A stretch of 64,000 bases of DNA from an uncultured Verrucomicrobiota bacterium (GTDB taxonomy: Bacteria > Verrucomicrobiota > Kiritimatiellia > CAIVKH01): positions 11,325-75,324 of the forward strand of contig CALMYG010000002.1 of NCBI GenBank assembly GCA_937873455.1, in the 5' to 3' direction. The notes under the pieces are model-generated. The model was not told the origin of the DNA, ran no database searches, and was given only the letters and a program-made list of their open reading frames with translations. Shown here piece by piece: positions 22,366-32,869 of the stretch. The translations under genes and the position numbers were made by a program. Numbering within the stretch: the first letter of the stretch is position 1; the number at the start of each line of letters is the position of its first letter.

Positions 22366-22809
22366 TCACGGCTTAAGTTCTGGATGTTTCGAATCCAACC
22401 ACGCCAGAACATCCACCTCAAGTCCTCGCGCGAATTCAATCAACTCATCTGCGTCGGCTTCTGTTGCGCCTCCCACATAGTCATACTCGACGGTGTTTCG
22501 TTTGGCTCGGCAGGTGTCGAGATATACGGCGTCGGTCTTTCGCTCGTCGCCGAGAATAAGCGGTAACGCCTGAAGCGTCCGATAGTGAGCAAGATTTTGG
22601 CTTGGTCTGTATCCTTCGGAATAAAGTAGAACCGTGCAAAGCTTTAACACTGCGTTATAGGCGATTCCAAAGCGCCAGTCAGAAGATATTCCACCCGCAG
22701 CGGAATCCGATATATCGCGACGAGCGATTGACACCAGGTTTTCTATTTCCTTTCGACTCGTCTTATGCGGTCTTAGCCAGCCATTAGTTTCCCATTGTTT
22801 TAAGCTCAT
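22366..22809 (-). CDS. HEPN-fold / nucleotidyltransferase-substrate-binding-like protein (partner of upstream MNT)
   Basis: 147 aa, predicted all-alpha, overlapping the 3' end of the MNT gene by 26 nt. The canonical Rx4-6H motif was not seen, so the assignment is by context. Confidence 0.45.
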   Translation of the reverse strand: MSLKQWETNGWLRPHKTSRKEIENLVSIARRDISDSAAGGISSDWRFGIAYNAVLKLCTVLLYSEGYRPSQNLAHYRTLQALPLILGDERKTDAVYLDTCRAKRNTVEYDYVGGATEADADELIEFARGLEVDVLAWLDSKHPELKP

Positions 22810-23377
22810 TAGGCGAACCTACCACAAAGATTTTCTCTGAATCCATAACGGAGGTTACAAAATGATCATTTTCTCGAAGCCGGCGGGAAAAATCCTCTGC
22901 GGTGATTACGTGCGGATTGATTTCTCTTCCCAAACGATCACTGAGACCGGAAAGCAATGACGATAACTTGCGGAGACTGATCGAACCGATCACCATTAGA
23001 TCGATGTCGCTATCCGCGCCAGCGGTGTCGCCAGCCACCGACCCAAAGACAAACGCACACCGAATACCATCCACCGCCAAAACATCACCCAGCACGTCGG
23101 CCAAGCCTATTGTTTTTAACACAAGTTGGTGAATATCCGGATAAAGTGGGTGGTTCTTGTTCGCAGAATAATACAACCGGTTCCCGTTACGCCGACGCGA
23201 CACGATACCCAATATGTTTAATTTCTCAATGTCCTGTCGCACTGTTCCGATGGTGAATCCAGTTTGCCGCTGTAAGTCTCGTAGATGGACCTCTCCTCCG
23301 CGCAAACCGAACAAAATCCGGAATATTTCCGCCCGGACTCGCGAGCAAACCAATTGAGCTAATACATTCATATGCAT
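22784..23377 (-). CDS. Winged-helix DNA-binding domain fused to minimal nucleotidyltransferase (MNT/MntA-like)
   Basis: C-terminal GSVAGDTAGADSDIDLMV, the GS-x9-13-DxD NTase motif. N-terminal wHTH (LRDLQRQTGFTIGTVRQDIEKLNILGIV). Confidence 0.75.
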   Translation of the reverse strand: MHMNVLAQLVCSRVRAEIFRILFGLRGGEVHLRDLQRQTGFTIGTVRQDIEKLNILGIVSRRRNGNRLYYSANKNHPLYPDIHQLVLKTIGLADVLGDVLAVDGIRCAFVFGSVAGDTAGADSDIDLMVIGSISLRKLSSLLSGLSDRLGREINPHVITAEDFSRRLRENDHFVTSVMDSEKIFVVGSPNELKTMGN

Positions 23378-23719: not shown

Positions 23720-24094
23720 ATGGCTTTCGAAAAGTTTACGCAGACAGGTACACGTCAAGCTCCGCTTGTTTCAATTAGGCGGGGGGGGTCGCTTGGATTA
23801 TCGCAGGGGGCCATAAATCGCTATGGTTTTGACAATGACATGACCCATGTAGTCTTGTTTTACGACAAAGAAGACAAACTAGTTGGGATTAAACCAATTG
23901 CCGGAGATTCTGAAGAGCATGCAATTAAAGTGATAGTCAGGCCGTATAAGGCGGCTAAGGGAAAAGAGTCAAAGACCGCGTTTTTCTCTGCCAAGTCATT
24001 TTTGGATTTTTACGCAATTCCGTATTCAGAGACCAAATCATATGACGCGAAGTGGGATGAACAGAACGCGATGATCGTCATCGATTTAAAATAA
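23720..24094 (+). CDS. Hypothetical protein
   Basis: 124-aa ORF behind an AT-rich promoter-like region (TTGACA/TATAAT hexamers at 23667-23678). No recognisable motif. Confidence 0.45.
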   Translation: MAFEKFTQTGTRQAPLVSIRRGGSLGLSQGAINRYGFDNDMTHVVLFYDKEDKLVGIKPIAGDSEEHAIKVIVRPYKAAKGKESKTAFFSAKSFLDFYAIPYSETKSYDAKWDEQNAMIVIDLK

Positions 24095-24259
24095 CATAAA
24101 AACTTATGGGCCCCGAGTAGCCTCGTGACCCATAAGCGAACCGGCCAGTTACGGACCGATTACTGTCTGTAACCTCTAATCTAAGACCATAACTGGCCAA
24201 ACGCAAGCAAAACCCGACCACTCGGCGGGCTACAGTCGAGTGGTCATGGAGTAACAGTT

Positions 24260-24772
24260 ATGGCATGGACCATGAGGATAGAACGAGCGAAACCAAATCC
24301 GCTCGGTAAAGACAAAACGGGTGCGGGATATCCCAAGCTTAATCAACTACTCGGAGAGTGGGTTGATCTCAAAAATATTGGAGATCAATCAGTCGACCTG
24401 AGTCAACTGCACTTGGCTCATCTTGAGTTCAGTGCTGGATGCAAACCCAAGGAAAGACCGGTGATCTACTGGAATGGGAAGGCGGGTACCATTCTGGGGC
24501 CTGGGCAAGTAGCTCGTATTCATACCGGAAGAAGTTCTGACTCACACCAAATGGATCTCGTGGACCAATTCGGTGCCGACATCCATTCATACGCCGAAAG
24601 CGGTTCGTTTGTTCTTAACAACGACTGCGGCGACGTTATGAGTGTGTGGTGGAAAGACCGCGAGGGAAACCTCCATAGAGATGATGCGGCTGGGTATGAT
24701 CCCAACCCACCAGAAGGTGCTATCCTGACCAGGGTTGGTCCAAAACTAAAACCAGTTCTGAGTTACGCATAA
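24260..24772 (+). CDS. Lamin-tail-domain (LTD) protein
   Basis: NPLGKD...GEWVDLKNIGDQSVDLSQLHL and NNDCGDVMSVWW..GNLHRD fit the LTD motif pattern NP.G.D..EWVEL.N.G...VDLSGW.L ... N.GD.V.L. Confidence 0.55.
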   Translation: MAWTMRIERAKPNPLGKDKTGAGYPKLNQLLGEWVDLKNIGDQSVDLSQLHLAHLEFSAGCKPKERPVIYWNGKAGTILGPGQVARIHTGRSSDSHQMDLVDQFGADIHSYAESGSFVLNNDCGDVMSVWWKDREGNLHRDDAAGYDPNPPEGAILTRVGPKLKPVLSYA

Positions 24773-24877
24773 GTGAAGCGGCGGCGATCCTTGTGTCTGT
24801 TGAAATGATTCGTTCCATAATGGATCATTTCAACGGCCAAGGAGCGCCTGACCGTCATATGATTGATGACTCACCTT

Positions 24878-25489
24878 CTAATAATCAAACACACCCTTGA
24901 TCCCGCTTTGGTCGAGTTGTACTTGACGCGGTATAAAATTATAACATGCTTGAGTCAGTTCCCATTGGCCATTCTTAACCAATTCCTTCTTTAATACAGC
25001 CAAGAGTCGAGGTAGATAAAAGACGTCTTTGGCTGCATATTTCAACTGTGCATCTGATAATTTTTTGGCCGCCCAATTCGAAGTGCGCATTCGCTTATCG
25101 ATACGAATCCCCAGTTTATCTCTTAGCAAAGACTTTAAACTATGATCACGCCTTGTCGGATCGACCAATTTGGATGCCACCTTTGTACAGGCGATGTTTT
25201 GAGGTTCTATTTGCCACTGATTAACCATGAAATTGAGATCAAATAATGCATAGTGAAACACCTTGCAGATATCTGGGCGCTCAATTAGCTCGATCATCTT
25301 TTGCGGCAAACCGCTGCCTGCCTTGATCACATAAACACTGCCACCTCCATACACCTGAAAAGACGCGATTGAGTTATCTCGCCAATCAAGACCTGTTGTT
25401 TCTATATCAACAGCCACAGCGCGCTTGGCTTTATAGCGGTCAATATTCAAGGATGCTGGTAAATCATGCGCCTTAAAAATGACATTCAT
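24878..25489 (-). CDS. 3'-5' exonuclease, DEDDy family (RNase D / WRN-exo-like domain)
   Basis: Exo I VAVDIETTGL, Exo II HYALFDLNFM and Exo III YAAKDVFYL motifs. The internal ATG at 25489 lies immediately after the upstream gene's stop (taa-t-ATG). Confidence 0.8.
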   Translation of the reverse strand: MNVIFKAHDLPASLNIDRYKAKRAVAVDIETTGLDWRDNSIASFQVYGGGSVYVIKAGSGLPQKMIELIERPDICKVFHYALFDLNFMVNQWQIEPQNIACTKVASKLVDPTRRDHSLKSLLRDKLGIRIDKRMRTSNWAAKKLSDAQLKYAAKDVFYLPRLLAVLKKELVKNGQWELTQACYNFIPRQVQLDQSGIKGVFDY

Positions 25490-25490
25490 A

Positions 25491-26264
25491 TTAATTTGCC
25501 CAGTGATAAAGTGATAACAATTGCCGATCAATGAAGTCGTATAATGTGCCTTCCCTTCGGACGCACAACACAGGAACGCCTCCACGGCCTTTGTCATGCT
25601 TGTGCAATGTAATTATTGCAATATCATCGAAACGATAAATATTAAAAAGAGGCGTTACTGGAGCTAGAATCACTTTTATCTTGTCGCCATTGTCCTCGAA
25701 TATTTGCTGGAACTCCTTAATGGTTTCATTAATGGACGCGATGATGTCGTCGTTGGGCAGATCGAATCGCCTCGCAAGCTCCGAAATACATGCTCCGTTT
25801 TTCGGATCCGGAACAATAAGCTTCAAAGTGGTCCCACGACGGGAGGCGAATTCCTTAAGACGCTTCAAGTTTGAATTTCTCCATGTTCGCGCATATGCAA
25901 AAAAAAGGTCGATCTGTTTAGCGTTCCGGAAAAGATCGTCCCATGAAACGTCCTGATAAAAATCCTGTGGCGTCGCGGTAATTCCCGCTTGTTTAAGATC
26001 ATCAGCGATCTTAGCACTTGCCAATATTTCAGCGACGAACGCACGTTTATTGATCAATTCCCATATTAGCATTATTAGGGCTGCGGGAAAAACAAGAGAT
26101 CCCGTTTGCGAGATCAGTTTCTGGAGCGTTGGGTGATAACTCAACCATGGAATCGATTCCGCGATATACATCAAGAGAAGTCCGATGCCCGCAACGACTA
26201 GCATTGATATAATAACGTGGAGATTTGTTCTTTCCTTGAGAAGATTTGTAATTCTATTTGGCAT
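25491..26264 (-). CDS. Membrane protein (2-3 N-terminal TM helices + ~170-aa soluble C-terminal domain), function unknown
   Basis: Hydrophobic segments LHVIISMLVVAGIGLLLMYIAESIPWL and SLVFPAALIMLIWELI. Very AT-rich gene, translationally coupled to the downstream exonuclease. Confidence 0.6.
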   Translation of the reverse strand: MPNRITNLLKERTNLHVIISMLVVAGIGLLLMYIAESIPWLSYHPTLQKLISQTGSLVFPAALIMLIWELINKRAFVAEILASAKIADDLKQAGITATPQDFYQDVSWDDLFRNAKQIDLFFAYARTWRNSNLKRLKEFASRRGTTLKLIVPDPKNGACISELARRFDLPNDDIIASINETIKEFQQIFEDNGDKIKVILAPVTPLFNIYRFDDIAIITLHKHDKGRGGVPVLCVRREGTLYDFIDRQLLSLYHWAN

Positions 26265-26305
26265 CGGACATCCATCCTCTTAAGCTTATATTTTAGCATT
26301 CCTGT

Positions 26306-28888
26306 TTATGTAATTCCCAGCACCTTCGTACACTCCTCCCCGAACTGGCTGATTACGCGGACGGCGATTTTTTGGGTCTTTTTCTTGATCTCGATGGGGT
26401 GTGAAAGGTGGCCGTAGATGCGGTCGAAGGCTTCGTCGTCGATTTCGATTTTCAGGGTTTTTTCGGCGTTGCGTTTGGTGGATGATTTGGCGAGGTCGGA
26501 GAGGCCGCGTTTCCATTTGTTGAACTCGTCCTTGTCGCCGCCGCAGAAGAAGACCTGGCGGACCATGAAGTTGCTGCCGTCGTAATCGTCGTCCACCATC
26601 CAGTAGGCGATGTCAGCGACGTCGCGGGGTTTGACTTCGTCGGTAACGGGGTCGTAGATGTCGAGGCCGCGGATTTCGACTTGAACTGCCTTGGGTTCGT
26701 TTTTCTTGGATTTTAACTCATTCAGCACAATATCCGGCTCGCCGATGGTGACAAAGGAGGCGGCTTTTTTGTCGCGTTTGAGCAGGCCGTCCTGCATCAG
26801 ATCGTCGTGCATGCGGACCTTGGTGACTTCGAAGGTGCCCATGCTGGCTGTCACGCTTTGGTTCTCGATGTTGCTCTCGAAGGAAAAGCCGAGAATGATC
26901 AGCCAGTCGGCGTCGCCGCGGGTCCGGCATTCCTTGACCGCTTCGTTGACCGCCTGACGGCTGACCGTGCCGAACTTGGGACCGATGTGGATGTAGGCCT
27001 TCTTTTCACCTTTGGCCGACTGGTAAAATCCTTCGGCGTGCAGATAGGCGCTGTTCAGCCGGTCCACCCGCATGAACACCGCCTGCTCGTTGCGGATGCC
27101 GTTTTTGATGCCGGCAGACTTCATGTGCTCGAATATCCGCTCTTCAAATGATTCCAATTCGTCCTTGTCCGGCACCGGCTTGTCCAATTCCTCCGCAGCA
27201 ATCGGTTCAAAGTTCTGGAGGGGTTCGACGGTGAACGGACCCGAGACGCGGAGCTTCTTCCGGTCAAATTCTGGCTGGTCAACAAGTATCTCTTCTCCCA
27301 GAGTTTCTTGTTGAGCAATTTGACCTAGCGTTACATGCGGCACTTTCTTGTACACGAATCCTTGCCGTATGTCGCTACCCGCATCGTCATACAGCTTGTA
27401 GTAAGGATAAGTTGACGAAAGAAGCCTTGTCTTTGATATATTTAAGGCAATTCGTGATGTGTCGATTGCAATCCAACGACGACCCCACTCCTCTGCAACA
27501 ACGGCAGTCGTTCCGCTACCGCATGTCGGATCAAGCACCAAATCACCGGGATCAGTTGCCATCAACATACACCGCTGAATTACGGTTACACCCGTTTGAA
27601 CAACATACAATTTGCCGGAGGCACCAGCAGTATCGGTCCACAAGTTGTTAACCTCAACAACCGGATAATCATCATAATACAATTTATAGCGAAGGGCATT
27701 CTGGGTGGCATACAGACGATTTTGATCGGCCAATTGCTTCATACCGGTCAGGTTGGTTTTCCAGCTTTTTCCAGCAGTAGGCCTATAGATTTTACCGTTC
27801 CACTCAAAATCAAATACACATGATTCTGTTCTTCCCGACGAAGAAAGATCTAGGCTCGTAAATACACGCGCACCCTCTGGTAACTTCAAGAGTTTCGACC
27901 GCTCATTTTTGCCAACAGATTCAATCCTCCCATCAGGATATTCAATCAAGCTGAATTGCTCTGATTCAACCACATCTTGATCTTGAAAAAGTTTTCGGTA
28001 TTTCATTGCCCCATCAGAAAAGCGCTTGCCGTACCATATAATGTAGTCGCATACGCCTGGTATGTAGGCATTTCGAAGAGGATTTTTAGTTTGAAATGCA
28101 ATTTGTGACACGAAATTATCACCGCCAAAGACTTCATCCATGAGACTGCGAACTAAATGCACATTCTCGTCGCTTATCTGCACGAAACACGATCCGCTTT
28201 CACTCAGAAGCTCCTTGGCCACGAGCAACCGATCACGCAAGTAGCCCAAGTAAGAGTGAATTCCTAACTCCCATGTATCACGATACGCTTTGATCTGCTC
28301 TGGTTCGCCCGTCAACTCCTCATCAGGCTGACTCTCTGACATAGATCGTTTATTCAGCTTCATCTGCCAGTTCGATCCGTATTTTATTCCGTATGGCGGA
28401 TCGATGTAGATCATCTGGACTTTGCCGGCCATGCCTTCTCGTTCGAGGAGGGAGGTCATGACGAGCTGGCTGTCGCCCTGGATCATGCGGTTGGTCCAGT
28501 CGTCGGCGTGCTGGTAGTACTCGGACACCTTGTCGATCTCGTCGAGTTTCAGTCCGTGGCCGAAGAGTCCGTTCAGAAAGGTTTGCTGGGCGTCGGGCAC
28601 TTCCTTGAGCTGGTACAATCGTCCGATGATTTTTTCCGGGGCAATGTGTTCGTGGCGATAGAGGGAGCGGATATCAACCTTGAGCCGGTCTTCGCGGTCA
28701 TCGGCACCGTATTTATGCATCCAGAACAATTCCGGGTCCTGGCCGCGATGGACGACGGGATTCACGGGAAAGTCCGCCTTTTCCTTGCCGCCTTTGACCC
28801 TCGGGCTGGACGATTCCTGCCCGGCTTCTTCTCGGGAAGGAATCAGCACCCGCTTCTCTTTGGAATGTTTGATGGATTTGATGGTCAT
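26306..28888 (-). CDS. mod: Type III restriction-modification Mod-like DNA methyltransferase (beta-class N6A/N4C MTase)
   Basis: Motif [11 protein letters not shown] precedes motif [17 protein letters not shown], the permuted beta-class order typical of Mod. 860 aa. Confidence 0.85.
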
Positions 28889-29082
28889 TTCGCGGCCTTG
28901 GTTCGGTAGGTGGCGCGGGTTTCGCGGGCGGCAGCGGCGGCTTCCGGACGCAGATGGACAATTTTACCATTCTTCACGACATGGATCGGGAGGCCGGCCT
29001 GCCATTGGCGGGCAATGGCTTTTTTCACCGCGGCTTTCATGGCGCGATCAGCCTGCACGGCCATGGATTCAGTTTTCTTCAT
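28885..29082 (-). CDS. Small hypothetical protein (65 aa) translationally coupled between P-loop kinase and mod
   Basis: Its ATG overlaps the kinase stop as ATGA, and its own stop overlaps the mod start as ATGA. Basic, lysine- and alanine-rich N-terminal stretch [29 protein letters not shown]. Confidence 0.4.
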
Positions 29083-29771
29083 GCTTTCGTCTCCCGGAGA
29101 AACACGTCGTAGCATTCCTCATTTCGAACACGTTCGGCACCCTCGGCCAACTCCACCATCAATACCGGTGAATTCCCCGAATTATCAAAGATCATGCACG
29201 AGTCAGCAAGTTTTTGATAAGCAGGCAGATTGGCGATAAATCGGGGCCAGCGCCGCCGGCGCGCCTCTTCCGGTACGTCATGCCCGCCCAATTTGACCCG
29301 GTTGGTAATCCGATATCGGGCCAAAGCGGGTTTGGATATCCACAATATGAACAAATGAATGTGATAGCCTCGCCGTTTTAGCTTCTTGATAAGGGCCAAA
29401 TAACTCCGGCCCGACAGGGTGGTTTCGAAGCCGAAATCATTCCCTTTCCGCGACAATTCCTCAATCCGGGTGAGGACCAGGCGTCCGGCGGAAAGCATGG
29501 CCCGGGCAGGGTCAAGGGGCGCCAATCCCTGGGCAATCAGGTCGGGGTTCACGAATTCACCGCAGTGCGCGTAGTGCGGCAGGTATTCCAATGCGAAGGT
29601 GGTTTTGCCCGCGCCGTTGGGTCCGGCAATGATGAAGCAGTTTGGTGCCTTAGCCATGGACAACTCCATCCGCCGTGTAGTAGCCGCTCCGTGAGCGGCA
29701 CGCCGACATGCTCGCTCGTCGAAATATGCGCCTCGCGGAAGCGCTACTACACCGCATGACTGATGGCTCAC
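29079..29771 (-). CDS. Zeta-toxin / AAA_33-like P-loop kinase
   Basis: Walker [13 protein letters not shown] and the kinase-fold arrangement. The start codon overlaps the res stop as ATGA. An alternative internal start at 29657 or 29669 is possible. Confidence 0.7.
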
Positions 29772-32700
29772 ACACCCGCCACCTCACGGGTCAGGATATA
29801 ATCACGCAACTGATTTTTGATATCACGGATATCCCCGGCAATCTCGATAAAGGCCCACGGATCATATTCGTACTTCTCCCGGACGGCATTGACGGCGGGA
29901 AGCCAGCGGTTTTCGACATACCACTTTTTGGCCGCCTTGTCCTGGCTCATGCCGGAGATTTCGATGATAAGGTTGATGTGCTGATCTTCAGCCACGCGGC
30001 ACCGGGCGATGAAATCGGGGAAATACAGCTTGTCTTTGCCGTCTTGAACATACGGGATGGCGAAGCCGAGGAAGGCGTTCTTCACGTAGGCTTCGACTTC
30101 ATCAAGCTCTTCCAATGTCTTGGCGGCGATCTGCTCCCAGCTATCGGTATCGGCGACCACATAATTGACATGGCTTTTCGTTGTTTCGAAAACCGGCCGT
30201 GAGGTGTGGCCATTGACGTAGGTGGTGCTGCCAAACTTATTGTAGAAATTAAGCACCGGTAGAATCTGATCCGTGGCCCGGCTGGCGGCCATGATGCCCC
30301 GGCTGATATGGCTACAGATCCGGTCCGGCAGGACAAAATACAGCAATTTTTTGAATGCCGGATCGGGAATGTTCAGCAGAACCACTTTGGTATGGTACCA
30401 CTTCTCGACAATGCGGAGAAGCTGGTTGAATTTGTAAAATTGGGGCTGACCATTGTCATCGCTGTAATGTTGATTGATCAGCGCGCGGGTGATCAGGAAA
30501 AATAATTCCTGCTCACGTTTTTCCACGATGGAACGGACCGTGAGTTTTTCCGTATTTTCGGAAAAAGCGGTGGCCATCTCGGTTTCCAGCGGGAATTTGG
30601 TGCCGTCGATTTCAAAATTTTCCAGGTTGGAAAAGTCGGCGGTGATGGGTCCGTCGCGTGATTCCACCCGGTAGCCGACGACATTGGGGAATGTGATCTC
30701 GAACTTTTCCTGCCGTTCCGGAATTGCAAGGATGTGCCACTTATCCACGGGCGGCGGAGGCTTGATCGTCCCGCCCTTGAACATGCGGAACGGAACGCCA
30801 ATGATGTGGGCGTATTCCGGGGGAAACTTCCAGGTGATATTTTCCGGCTTGAACCGTTTGATATTGTCCTCGGGAATTTCCTGTCCGTCCTTGTCGTAGG
30901 CTTGCAGTATGTAGTTCTTCCGGCGCAAAGCGCGGCCGGCGACCTGTTCGCAAAGCAACTGCGATCCGAAGGCGCGAAGCCCCATGATATGGGTGACGGT
31001 ATTGGCATCCCAGCCCTCGGTCAGCATGGAAACAGACACCACGCAACGAATATGGGCGCCCAGCATCCCTTTCTTCCCGACGGAGTTGACCACCTCGCGC
31101 ATGATTTCGGCCTCGGTGATGTTTTCGGCCGAGCCTTGGCCATGAATACGGGCGTACTCGCGTTTAAACACCTCGATTTCGTCGGAGAAGATTTTCTTGA
31201 AATCGTCGTTGATCTGATCGGAGTTTTCCAGGGCATCGCTGTCGATAAGGAGCGTCGGAGGCTTTTTGAGTGGTTTATGGGTTTTCCGGTCGTAGTTTGA
31301 AAAAATTTCAAAATGTCCGGGAATGGCCCGCAAGGTGTCATCCGGCAGGGTTTGTTCGTACCCGGCAATGTATTTGTATACTTCCTTGGAAACCGACGTG
31401 TTGTTGCATACGACAATAAACACGGGCGGGCTGTCGAACAATCCGCGGATTTGTTCATAATCGCGCTGGTAGTGCCCGTGGAATTTTTCGAGGGCGGCCT
31501 GCACGAGCGTCGGCAATTTCGGCGGTTCCTCCCCGACGGGGGTTTTCCCTTCCTTGCGGGCATCGGACTTTCGGCGCTTCTGACCCTTCTTTGGCAGTTC
31601 GTCCTTCACGTGTTCGTAAAGGTTGCGCAGGACCGGCATGGTCAATTCGTGGGTGGTATCGCTTTCCGGCAAGAAAGGAATTTTCACCAAACCGGCCTCA
31701 ATGGCCTCGATGAGGCCGAAATCGGTGACGACCCAGGGGAACAGGCTGTAAGCATCGTAACCGGAACCGGTCAGGTAATACGGCGTGGCGCTAAGATCAT
31801 AGACGGTGTCGACCTTGAATCGTTTGGCTACCTCAGTCAGCCCGGTAAACCAGACGGCGGCCCGTTTGTTTTCCTCCTTGGTATCCTCGCCCTCAATAGC
31901 CTTCCCGGCTTCTTTGGGCAGATAGCAGTGGTGAGCTTCATCGTTCAGGATCAGGAGGCGCGAGCCCGGCTTGATCTTGCCGAGCACGCGGCGCAGCATT
32001 TGTCCGGCATCTTCGGTCGCCTGCTGTTTTTCGCCCTGGGCATTGATTTTTCCATCAAATGGACTGCGTTTATTGCCCTGAAGGGTACGAGGTTCAAACG
32101 CGTGGTAATTGGTGATCACGATCCGGGCATTCAAATTGCCCATTTTGTTGTCCCACCCACGTGGAATCAGCGAGCGGGCATGATAGTAGTCCGTAATTTC
32201 CGCACGGCGGTCGAGGTTTACAAACAGCACGCCGAGGCGGTTTTTGATCGTGATACCGGGCGCAACAATCAGAAAGGAATCGGCGAAGCGGGTGTCGTTT
32301 CGGTATTCCTGTCGATTGAAGAAGTGATAGAGAATCTGCATGGCCATGACCACGGTTTTCCCGGTGCCGGTAGCCATTTTGAACGCGACGCGCGGCAGAT
32401 TGCAGGACAGGTTTTCCGTGCTGACCTGCTGGGCGGAACGCAATTGATTCAGGACATATTGACCGGCATTGGACCGGTCAGCTACTTCATTCAACCAAAT
32501 GGCAGTTTCGATGGCCTCGCGCTGGGCGAAGAAAAGTTTGGCCTCGGCATGTCGATCGGGATTTAGAAACCAAAAAGTCAGTAATTCGCGGGTCACGCGA
32601 GTCACCGAGGGATAACCATCCTTCCGCCAAAGCCCGACCTCTTTCCGCAACAAGTTGATCAAATGAGAACCAAATTCCTCGGCTCGTTCATTGATCTCGA

Positions 32701-32869
32701 ACATGGACCGTTGAGGTCCCTGCCGAACTGGAATAGACTGAATTTCCGGGGCAAAAATTCGGCGTCCCTTGACGATTTTCTGATAGTCCAGCGTTCCCTC
32801 GTCATCCGTGGCATAATGAAGCAACGGTTCATCATACGGGCTATTGAGGATGGGGTTGTCGGTTGTCAT
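29768..32869 (-). CDS. res: Type III restriction enzyme Res-like subunit (SF2 helicase/ATPase + C-terminal nuclease region)
   Basis: Walker [15 protein letters not shown] box LNDEAHHCY, later helicase motifs, and a ~300-aa C-terminal region. 1033 aa. Confidence 0.85.

Follow-up and report, generated by a model that had tools for sequence, protein, structure and literature searches.

The diDNases are dimeric enzymes that cut only DNA dinucleotides, and two motifs set them apart from NrnC (Mortensen et al., NAR 2025, PMC11706625). In diDNases the second exonuclease motif (ExoII) reads HHAxFD(L/I)xF and the protein ends in Tyr, whereas in NrnC the motif reads H(F/Y)(A/G)RFD and the last residue is His (PMC11706625). 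Characterised members of the NrnC/diDNase family cut two-nucleotide substrates only (PMC11706625). According to the literature, diDNases break 5'-phosphorylated deoxydinucleotides down into mononucleotides and reduce the amount of deoxydinucleotides in the cell. The subject here is a gene pair at positions 24,878 to 26,264 of a 64,000-nucleotide stretch (the window) from an uncultured Kiritimatiellia bacterium (contig CALMYG010000002.1), encoding a diDNase-like exonuclease and, directly upstream, a membrane protein with two predicted transmembrane (TM) helices.

About two-thirds of 93 Gram-positive diDNase genes lie in an operon with "a conserved HTH domain-containing protein" (HTH, helix-turn-helix), one third lie beside HipA plus HIRAN genes, and 42% of diDNases lie within ten genes of a defence system (PMC11706625). 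Both that paper and a 2026 follow-up (PMC13464484) describe diDNases as Gram-positive-specific; neither mentions a membrane partner.

Two other described systems are close enough to compare. NrnC, from Alphaproteobacteria and Cyanobacteria, is likewise a single-domain DEDDy dinuclease of ~200 residues (35% identity to the window protein, E 1.7e-36 for PDB entry 7mpr), but it is an octamer with a housekeeping role, and cuts both RNA and DNA dinucleotides (PMC11706625, PMC8492067). The defence protein Ec2ApeA is switched on by deoxydinucleotides and becomes less toxic when a diDNase is co-expressed (bioRxiv 10.64898/2026.01.26.701840). Ec2ApeA thus sets a precedent for deoxydinucleotides as infection signals, with a diDNase lowering effector activation; it differs in being a soluble HEPN tRNase of unrelated sequence and fold, with no dedicated diDNase partner.

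The window pair is a member of the published diDNase operon family, outside the reported Gram-positive range, and not a new category. It shares with that operon the enzyme family and its diagnostic motifs, save for one ExoII position; an adjacent conserved gene of ~260-290 codons; an operon-like arrangement; and location in genomic islands near defence genes. It differs from the published description in three ways: the partner, there called an HTH protein, is here a two-TM protein; the host belongs to the Kiritimatiellia, and the pair occurs in at least six other non-Gram-positive phyla; and ExoII begins HYA rather than HHA. The module is therefore not limited to Gram-positive bacteria, against the published description. 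By this analysis, what most often accompanies a diDNase in its operon appears to be a two-TM protein whose phospholipase D (PLD)-fold domain is catalytically degenerate, not a DNA-binding regulator. With high confidence, the locus can be described as a self-contained, horizontally mobile two-gene module, a membrane PLD-like protein plus a diDNase, that landed beside a Type III restriction-modification (R-M) system in a Kiritimatiellia defence island.

The exonuclease, the membrane protein, and their junction

The features of the pair are as follows.

25491 to 26264, minus strand: gene for the 257-residue TM protein, with a two-TM hairpin, a long stalk helix, and a C-terminal domain that looks like a PLD fold (open reading frame list)
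26049 to 26225, minus strand: residues ~14-72 of the TM protein, two TM helices ending in a juxtamembrane motif (Kyte-Doolittle, AlphaFold2 model)
25494 to 25982, minus strand: residues 95-257 of the TM protein, cytoplasmic PLD-like domain without the canonical HKD motif
24878 to 25489, minus strand: exonuclease gene, 203-residue single-domain DEDDy protein assigned to the NrnC/diDNase dinuclease family (PF01612, PDB sequence matches, motifs)
25487 to 25493, minus strand: junction TAAtATG, comprising TM stop, one spacer base, and exonuclease start
26265 to 26305, minus strand: 41-nt spacer from the mod stop to the TM start, with a Shine-Dalgarno-like AGAGGA at 26275-26280

The exonuclease matches PF01612 (DNA_pol_A_exo1; Pfam, E 6e-32). 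Sequence and alignments reveal a complete catalytic set: D28-x-E30 (ExoI); D84 (ExoII); and Y151-xxx-D155 (ExoIII). Its leading PDB sequence matches are entry 9qrf, a reconstructed "ancestor of diDNase" (1.3e-48), and diDNaseNoc (9f7g, 1.1e-41); NrnC follows (7mpr; and 7mpl, 1.1e-32), and a second diDNase scores lower (9f7d, 4e-27). The ExoII motif, H79-YALFDLNF, fits the diDNase consensus at eight of nine positions: Arg is absent from position 4 and FDLxF is present, whereas position 2 is Tyr, as in NrnC. The protein ends in ...GVFDY, and its C-terminal Y203 aligns with the terminal Tyr of both 9qrf and 9f7g. Most of the 49 nearest homologues carry the diDNase signature: in 48 the Arg of NrnC is missing, and about 34 have Tyr as their last residue. 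About ten share the HYA of the window protein.

On this sequence evidence the exonuclease is placed in the NrnC/diDNase dinuclease family. Identity as NrnC itself was rejected, given Leu82 where NrnC has Arg, the FDLxF sequence, and terminal Tyr where NrnC has His. Ribonuclease D also was rejected: the scores fall far under cut-off (67.7 bits versus 298.95 for TIGR01388; 49.3 versus 516 for NF008089), and the protein has only 203 residues versus ~375 for ribonuclease D with its HRDC domains. The NCBI annotation, 'ribonuclease D', is thus a superfamily label only. Because the enzyme belongs to the dinuclease family and is not of the processive RNase D/WRN type, it is unlikely to be a DNA-destroying effector. 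PADLOC returned weak partial matches only, to a Cas-associated DEDDh protein (1e-6) and the BrxH C-terminus (5e-6).

The TM gene reads from 26264 to 25491, its last three bases (25493-25491) being the stop codon TAA. A single base (25490) separates this stop from the exonuclease ATG at 25489-25487, whose open reading frame continues to 24878 (204 codons including the stop). AGAGGA stands 10 nt ahead of the TM ATG at 26264, whereas inspection found no comparable Shine-Dalgarno sequence ahead of the exonuclease ATG. This absence fits translational coupling through termination and reinitiation. A longer in-frame start at 25597 (239 residues) was rejected: it would place 107 nt of the reading frame inside the TM gene, and homologues do not support it; since homologues and PDB alignments begin at residue 2 of the 203-residue form, 25489 is likely the true start. 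Upstream, mod occupies 26306-28888, its stop codon ending at 26306, and a consensus terminator scan found no terminator-like site in the 41-nt spacer.

Much of this agrees with the original prediction, made from the sequence alone: the coordinates of both genes, their one-base junction, the position of the pair on the mod strand 41 nt downstream of mod, and the intact Exo motifs all hold. So does the strong AT-richness, ~43% GC against a background of ~60% (TM gene, 43.4%; exonuclease, 42.5%; mod, 51%; res, 53%; metH, 60%; whole window, 58%). The predicted length of 257 residues is correct for the TM protein, whereas the 204 given for the exonuclease had counted the stop codon. The RNase D/WRN-like label does not survive, in view of the PDB matches and the ribonuclease D model scores.

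The TM protein has two hydrophobic helices, at residues ~16-36 and ~52-72 (Kyte-Doolittle), followed by a cytoplasmic domain of ~163 residues. An AlphaFold2 model (mean pLDDT, the per-residue model confidence, 86) predicts helices at residues 3-37 and 45-93 and an alpha/beta domain at 95-257. The juxtamembrane motif W68-E-L-x-x-K-R74-A-F-x-x-E79 is conserved: G28, G55, W68, R74, and E79, in the membrane and juxtamembrane regions, are kept in 92-99% of 124 aligned sequences. Conserved positions in the soluble domain of the same sequences include W108, D119, Y124, W128 (100%), R129, D153, R166, Y210, D213, H223 (85%), P231, and G239.

Structural matches of the C-terminal domain include, among the top ones, TrmB, along with Nuc, NucT, Zucchini, PLD4, and SauUSI. 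Residues 95-257 thus look like a PLD fold, resembling an inactivated PLD-type nuclease. The catalytic motif HxK(x)4D, present in the PLD nucleases (Nuc, NucT, Zucchini, PLD3/4, BfiI, and SauUSI), is absent from the 124-sequence family alignment: the equivalent strand carries Y210-R-F-D213, and the best-conserved His, H223, has no partner Lys. An active HKD nuclease was rejected on account of the missing motif, and with that motif lost the domain most likely is a catalytically degenerate module that binds rather than cuts. Degenerate PLD-like modules are found also in FAM83 and TrmB, the latter an HTH regulator that uses the module to bind ligand.

Profile and sequence searches give the TM protein no name. 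There was no match in Pfam (E<=0.01; this includes DUF5919, PF19319), PADLOC, NCBIfam, or PHROGs, and a profile search against PDB sequences returned noise only (E >= 0.46). Nonetheless, the family is large. A word-indexed search found only 22 relatives, and an exhaustive profile search recovered 2029 representatives at 50% identity with E<=1e-3, and 511 with E<=1e-30; the top 150 listed are mostly ~250-300 residues and match over nearly their full length.

The soluble domain has a second setting. In hundreds of actinomycete proteins it is joined to an XRE-type HTH domain in place of the TM helices. A TM-family profile (124 sequences) aligned with an XRE-HTH profile (28 sequences) at an hhalign probability of 95% (E 4e-8, 151 columns); for the single sequence, in which the C-terminal half of the XRE protein aligns with the PLD-like domain, the probability was 75%. 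By profile comparison, then, the PLD-like domain is homologous to the C-terminal domain of XRE-HTH (DUF5919-like) regulators. These regulators, like TrmB, carry a DNA-binding domain at the amino terminus where the window protein has TM helices. One XRE-HTH relative lies two genes from a TM-diDNase pair, on the other strand, in Nocardiopsis quinghaiensis (locus L010); this protein has a sub-threshold match to DUF5919 (E 0.004).

At that locus (L010, 9423-10830) the gene for a CYTH-domain protein (1.5e-15) overlaps the gene for the XRE-HTH protein with its PLD-like/DUF5919-like domain, and both are convergent with the TM-diDNase pair. The CYTH gene, the XRE-HTH gene, and the pair may form a larger functional neighbourhood in actinomycetes.

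The partner in the published operon and across genomes

The relationship between the two architectures bears on the published partner. Cluster 1 of the webFlaGs analysis in PMC11706625 consists mostly of 'hypothetical proteins' whose accessions differ by one from that of the diDNase (for example, WP_136002636/7, WP_213011331/2, and WP_263023574/5), plus XRE regulators and one DUF5919 protein. Four species are common to that study and to the loci analysed here: Clostridium perfringens (L039), N. quinghaiensis (L010), Actinoplanes toevensis (L029), and Actinoplanes sp. KI2 (L026). All four have a full-length TM-family gene directly upstream of the diDNase gene, with no room for an HTH domain. 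The TM and XRE-HTH protein types have only the C-terminal PLD-like domain in common. We infer that the published clustering merged two architectures sharing this domain and took its name from the annotated HTH members. The published account therefore appears to have mislabelled a membrane partner as a DNA-binding regulator. In the published context a diDNase gene lies beside either a cluster 1 partner or HipA/HIRAN; in the window its neighbour, directly upstream, is a TM/PLD-like gene. The re-identification shifts the relevant questions from promoter binding to toxicity, membrane integrity, and ligand binding.

Is the pairing conserved? Scanning a single genome for each GTDB species yielded 34 TM-family loci, and tblastn was used to locate exonuclease genes next to the TM genes. 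Among these 34 informative loci, drawn from ~10 phyla, an exonuclease gene lies directly downstream in 22, at gaps of -4 to +76 nt (a degraded copy, L034, apart). The TM-family loci come from Chloroflexota, Brocadia, Atribacterota, Acidobacteriota, Armatimonadota, many Actinomycetota, Cyanobacteria, Planctomycetota, Nitrosomonadales, Pseudomonas, Aeromonas, and methanotrophs; the paired ones, from Chloroflexota, Planctomycetota (Brocadia), Atribacterota, Acidobacteriota, Actinomycetota, Armatimonadota, and others. Two metagenomic homologues (34-37% identity) also have a PF01612 gene overlapping or abutting downstream. Because the same order and tight spacing recur in distant relatives (30-40% identity) of many phyla, the pairing is not due to chance. 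The partner exonucleases nearly all have the published diDNase signature, HHAxFDLxF with Tyr at the C-terminus; three copies depart from it, as Aquimonas (L043) reads HNAIFDLRF, L010 ends in His, and L034 is degraded.

Four contexts were examined from the exonuclease side. Two, the C. perfringens prophage and Aquimonas copies, have a TM-family gene directly upstream (hidden Markov model E 1.5e-37 and 3.7e-54, respectively); a third adjoins PDC-M03A/B, a HipA/HIRAN candidate system; and the fourth, on a phage-like contig, has neither partner. The coupling that the original prediction had seen in the window thus recurs, in the 22 loci counted from the TM side and in two of the four counted from the exonuclease side, and its counter-picture of a lone housekeeping exonuclease and a TM protein lacking a conserved partner does not describe these loci. 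The pairing had been assigned to no named system. Indeed, PADLOC has no model for the TM protein; on the other hand, a diDNase operon with a partner, termed HTH, was published in 2025.

HIRAN is known from HLTF to bind DNA 3' ends. Its presence in the other diDNase partner hints, by analogy, at a common theme of short-DNA sensing.

Several side observations concern individual copies. The C. perfringens pair (L039/L040, 4171-5621) lies in a prophage between RusA/N6-methylase genes and the small and large terminase genes, a typical moron position. Frameshifted or split TM genes occur in L027 (7911-8825), L035 (6009-6823), and L034 (2002-3330), where the diDNase gene also is split, and point to decay of some copies. 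The 12 loci in which the TM gene stands alone include a gammaproteobacterial subgroup, and two of them, L027 and L035, are the frameshifted ones. Neighbours of TM genes lacking a diDNase include a DUF7019 protein (9.6e-12), two unannotated proteins of 158-175 residues, and a PDC-S31-like protein (1.1e-24), in L012 (8966-9823), L013 (8955-9482), L028 (1305-1781), and L019 (7157-7906). These small genes may encode alternative partners.

Neighbours were scanned with Pfam and PADLOC as 283 open reading frames (called by a longest-frame and third-position GC heuristic) within 5 kb of the pair or TM gene in 36 loci; the scans give counts only, with no assignment to individual loci. No conserved third gene emerged: no family has more than four members among the 283, and RmuC occurs three times. 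Defence and toxin-antitoxin genes among the neighbours include Septu PtuAB, pAgo, AbiLi, DRT UG37, MADS components, methyl-directed and NaeI/AspBHI-type restriction enzymes, RES, Fic, and AbiEii-like ATPases; a DDE transposase also is present.

Possible functions of the pair

A number of membrane effectors have a comparable layout: Cam1, Csx23, Cap15, and PycTM each join an N-terminal TM segment to a cytosolic sensor domain. Ring nucleases act as off-switches for cyclic-oligoadenylate effectors. The pair resembles these systems in architecture only, with TM helices, a soluble C-terminal domain, and, encoded alongside, a small nuclease that could degrade a nucleotide signal; it differs in its PLD-like fold, where their sensors are CARF, SAVED, or beta-barrel folds, and no gene for a signal synthase is present.

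A tentative model can be put forward. Deoxydinucleotides, or very short 5'-phosphorylated DNA, would accumulate as DNA is degraded during phage attack or genotoxic stress. The PLD-like domain would bind them, whereupon the TM hairpins would assemble and damage the membrane, or signal through it, and the infected cell would stop. The co-expressed diDNase would clear the low background of deoxydinucleotides that arises from DNA repair; by analogy with ring nucleases, it could set the activation threshold and prevent self-killing. Fusion of one domain either to TM helices or to XRE-HTH fits the expectation for a sensor domain with swappable outputs. Taken whole (PLD-like sensor of deoxydinucleotides, TM output, and diDNase clearing the signal), the model is possible, though it falls well short of probable. 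Its sharper form is more doubtful: an abortive-infection effector of a novel type, whose dead PLD domain would be gated by deoxydinucleotides, with the diDNase as its dedicated signal-clearer.

A number of observations weigh against the model. The TM gene stands without a diDNase gene in 12 of the 34 loci, awkward if the enzyme tames a toxic partner. Nucleotide binding by the PLD-like domain is conjectural, and the conserved His223 leaves room for non-canonical catalysis. In the alignment, the conserved aromatic and pocket-like residues of the TM-family domain are not common to its HTH-fused relatives. diDNases also pair with the unrelated PDC-M03 (HipA/HIRAN), so the enzyme may serve a general role. 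Many neighbourhoods contain housekeeping genes (Radical SAM/menaquinone, glycine cleavage, and COX1), and the association with defence is known as counts over loci, not locus by locus. Searches of phage and plasmid collections did not recover the TM family: a family-pattern scan of IMG/VR gave no confirmed match, and tblastn drew a blank both with the Clostridium TM protein against 50,697 phage genomes and with the window TM protein against plasmids.

Were the sharper form correct, the two genes would make up an immune module of wide distribution (at least 2000 protein clusters, ~10 phyla) that senses damage products instead of phage components, and the XRE-fused relatives would be transcription factors responsive to deoxydinucleotides. 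The pair is a testable candidate for a second system, besides ApeA, that reads deoxydinucleotides. Knowledge of the PLD-like domain's ligand would also annotate the large family of XRE-HTH regulators.

Five other explanations deserve consideration. First, the pair could be a toxin-antitoxin or addiction module, in which a membrane toxin is neutralised by the diDNase, or by complex formation with it, and the island is stabilised with no sensing of phage. Such a module would account for the tight translational linkage, the mobility, and the patchy distribution; the toxin-antitoxin genes among the neighbours (RES, Fic, and AbiEii-like); and the occasional frameshift in an orphan TM copy. Set against this are ten intact orphan TM genes without a diDNase, and the strict retention of the diDNase catalytic and specificity motifs, which argues for turnover over mere binding. 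An addiction role is accordingly judged unlikely.

Second, the membrane protein could be a tether that, through its PLD-like domain, recruits either the soluble diDNase dimer or the ends of DNA to the inner membrane. The pair would there finish the degradation of DNA that enters or leaves the cell (injection, conjugation, or uptake), so as to salvage or exclude it. Relatives with the PLD fold, among them Nuc, NucT, Zucchini, PLD4, and SauUSI, do act on phosphodiester backbones of DNA or RNA; gene order and coupling suggest 1:1 co-production; and RmuC, MutH-like, PolB-exo-like, and AddB-like genes flank some copies. However, the neighbour scans found no upstream nuclease conserved in the module, and one third of the TM genes have no enzyme to recruit. 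Neither tethering nor the proposed role in finishing DNA degradation is likely.

Third, the pair could serve the Type III R-M system as an accessory, sharing a transcript with res and mod and clearing or recycling the dinucleotide end-products of restricted foreign DNA; restriction followed by exonuclease digestion presumably would yield deoxydinucleotides. The short same-strand spacer after mod, empty in the terminator scan, is as this idea would have it. Yet at the 36 other loci the neighbour families listed first (for PADLOC, the top 25 per set; and Pfam) include neither a Type III methyltransferase nor Res, the TM gene has its own Shine-Dalgarno-like sequence, and the 43% GC of the pair, versus 51-53% for mod and res, suggests separate acquisition. 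A functional tie to Type III R-M was therefore rejected, being neither recurrent nor matched in composition, and an accessory role is improbable. The original prediction had placed the pair at the distal end of the R-M operon, which now appears idiosyncratic to this genome. The evidence suggests that the adjacency is a defence-island coincidence, with read-through transcription from mod possible.

Fourth, the diDNase could act in counter-defence, destroying a deoxydinucleotide alarm so that a prophage or island escapes ApeA-like sensors, with the TM protein in a separate role such as superinfection exclusion. The prophage location of the C. perfringens copy, between RusA/methylase and terminase genes, is in keeping with this explanation, as is the suppression of Ec2ApeA activation by a diDNase (bioRxiv 10.64898/2026.01.26.701840). 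It is nevertheless quite improbable: the searches run detected neither gene in IMG/VR or the 50,697 phage genomes, the majority of copies lie on chromosomes away from any phage genes, and the conserved partner is left unexplained. The exonuclease by itself likewise had no match in the phage genomes; among plasmids it matched 25 records, one from Nocardiopsis, and the 15 listed are alphaproteobacterial, with NrnC-like genes on chromids, and uninformative.

Finally, a housekeeping nanoRNase that, like NrnC, performs the last step of RNA and DNA turnover beside a chance membrane neighbour is very improbable, for all the NCBI annotation, the close relationship to NrnC, and the housekeeping neighbours at some loci, given Leu rather than Arg as the fourth ExoII residue and Tyr rather than His at the C-terminus; the AT-rich composition of a gene in a defence island; the patchy distribution across phyla; and the conserved partner.

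The island and minor observations

The whole 22.3-32.9 kb stretch of the window is a low-GC island. Its cargo includes a PDC-M05 MNT/HEPN pair; a Type III Mod (PADLOC MTase_III, 9.5e-157); a Res helicase-nuclease; and a zeta-toxin-like kinase. The pair thus sits in a defence island, in keeping with the phage-defence reading suggested in the original prediction.

The MNT/HEPN-type pair, at 22366-23377 on the minus strand, matches the PADLOC candidate PDC-M05 (A, 5.9e-55; B, 9.4e-43) and sits on the metH-proximal edge of the island. Two AT-rich plus-strand genes at 23720-24772 are convergent to the exonuclease gene: a 124-codon open reading frame with faint PHROG matches only, and a gene for a 170-residue protein with a sub-threshold match to the Lamin Tail Domain (LTD; 2.5e-06, 28.3 bits versus a cut-off of 34.3). 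Both probably are separate island cargo. Between the convergent exonuclease and LTD-like genes lies one further feature.

24800 to 24833, no strand assigned: perfect 10-bp inverted repeat, TTGAAATGAT ... ATCATTTCAA, with a 14-nt loop

The repeat lies 45 nt past the exonuclease stop and is a possible bidirectional transcript end; no T run follows it, and the terminator scan did not call the site.

Elsewhere, the pair in one metagenomic locus, L003 (7208-16318), is flanked by genes for a MutH/MvaI-like endonuclease, a PolB-exo-like DEDD protein, RmuC, and a 1280-residue AddB-like PDDEXK protein. RmuC adjoins the pair in a second, unrelated locus too (L001, 6556-7803), and the PADLOC RTasRmuC model matched three neighbours overall.

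In the window, the Type III R-M region (28885-32869, minus strand) has the order res then mod, with two additional genes in between. The first, at 29079-29771, encodes a zeta-toxin/AAA_33-like P-loop protein (Zeta_toxin, 1.7e-09); the second is a small open reading frame of 65-76 codons at 28885-29115. The zeta-like stop overlaps an internal ATG of the small frame (gcATGA, 29082-29079), whose own stop overlaps the mod ATG (aaATGAcc, 28888-28885), so the three genes are chained through ATGA overlaps. A toxin-like kinase within an R-M operon is an unusual arrangement.

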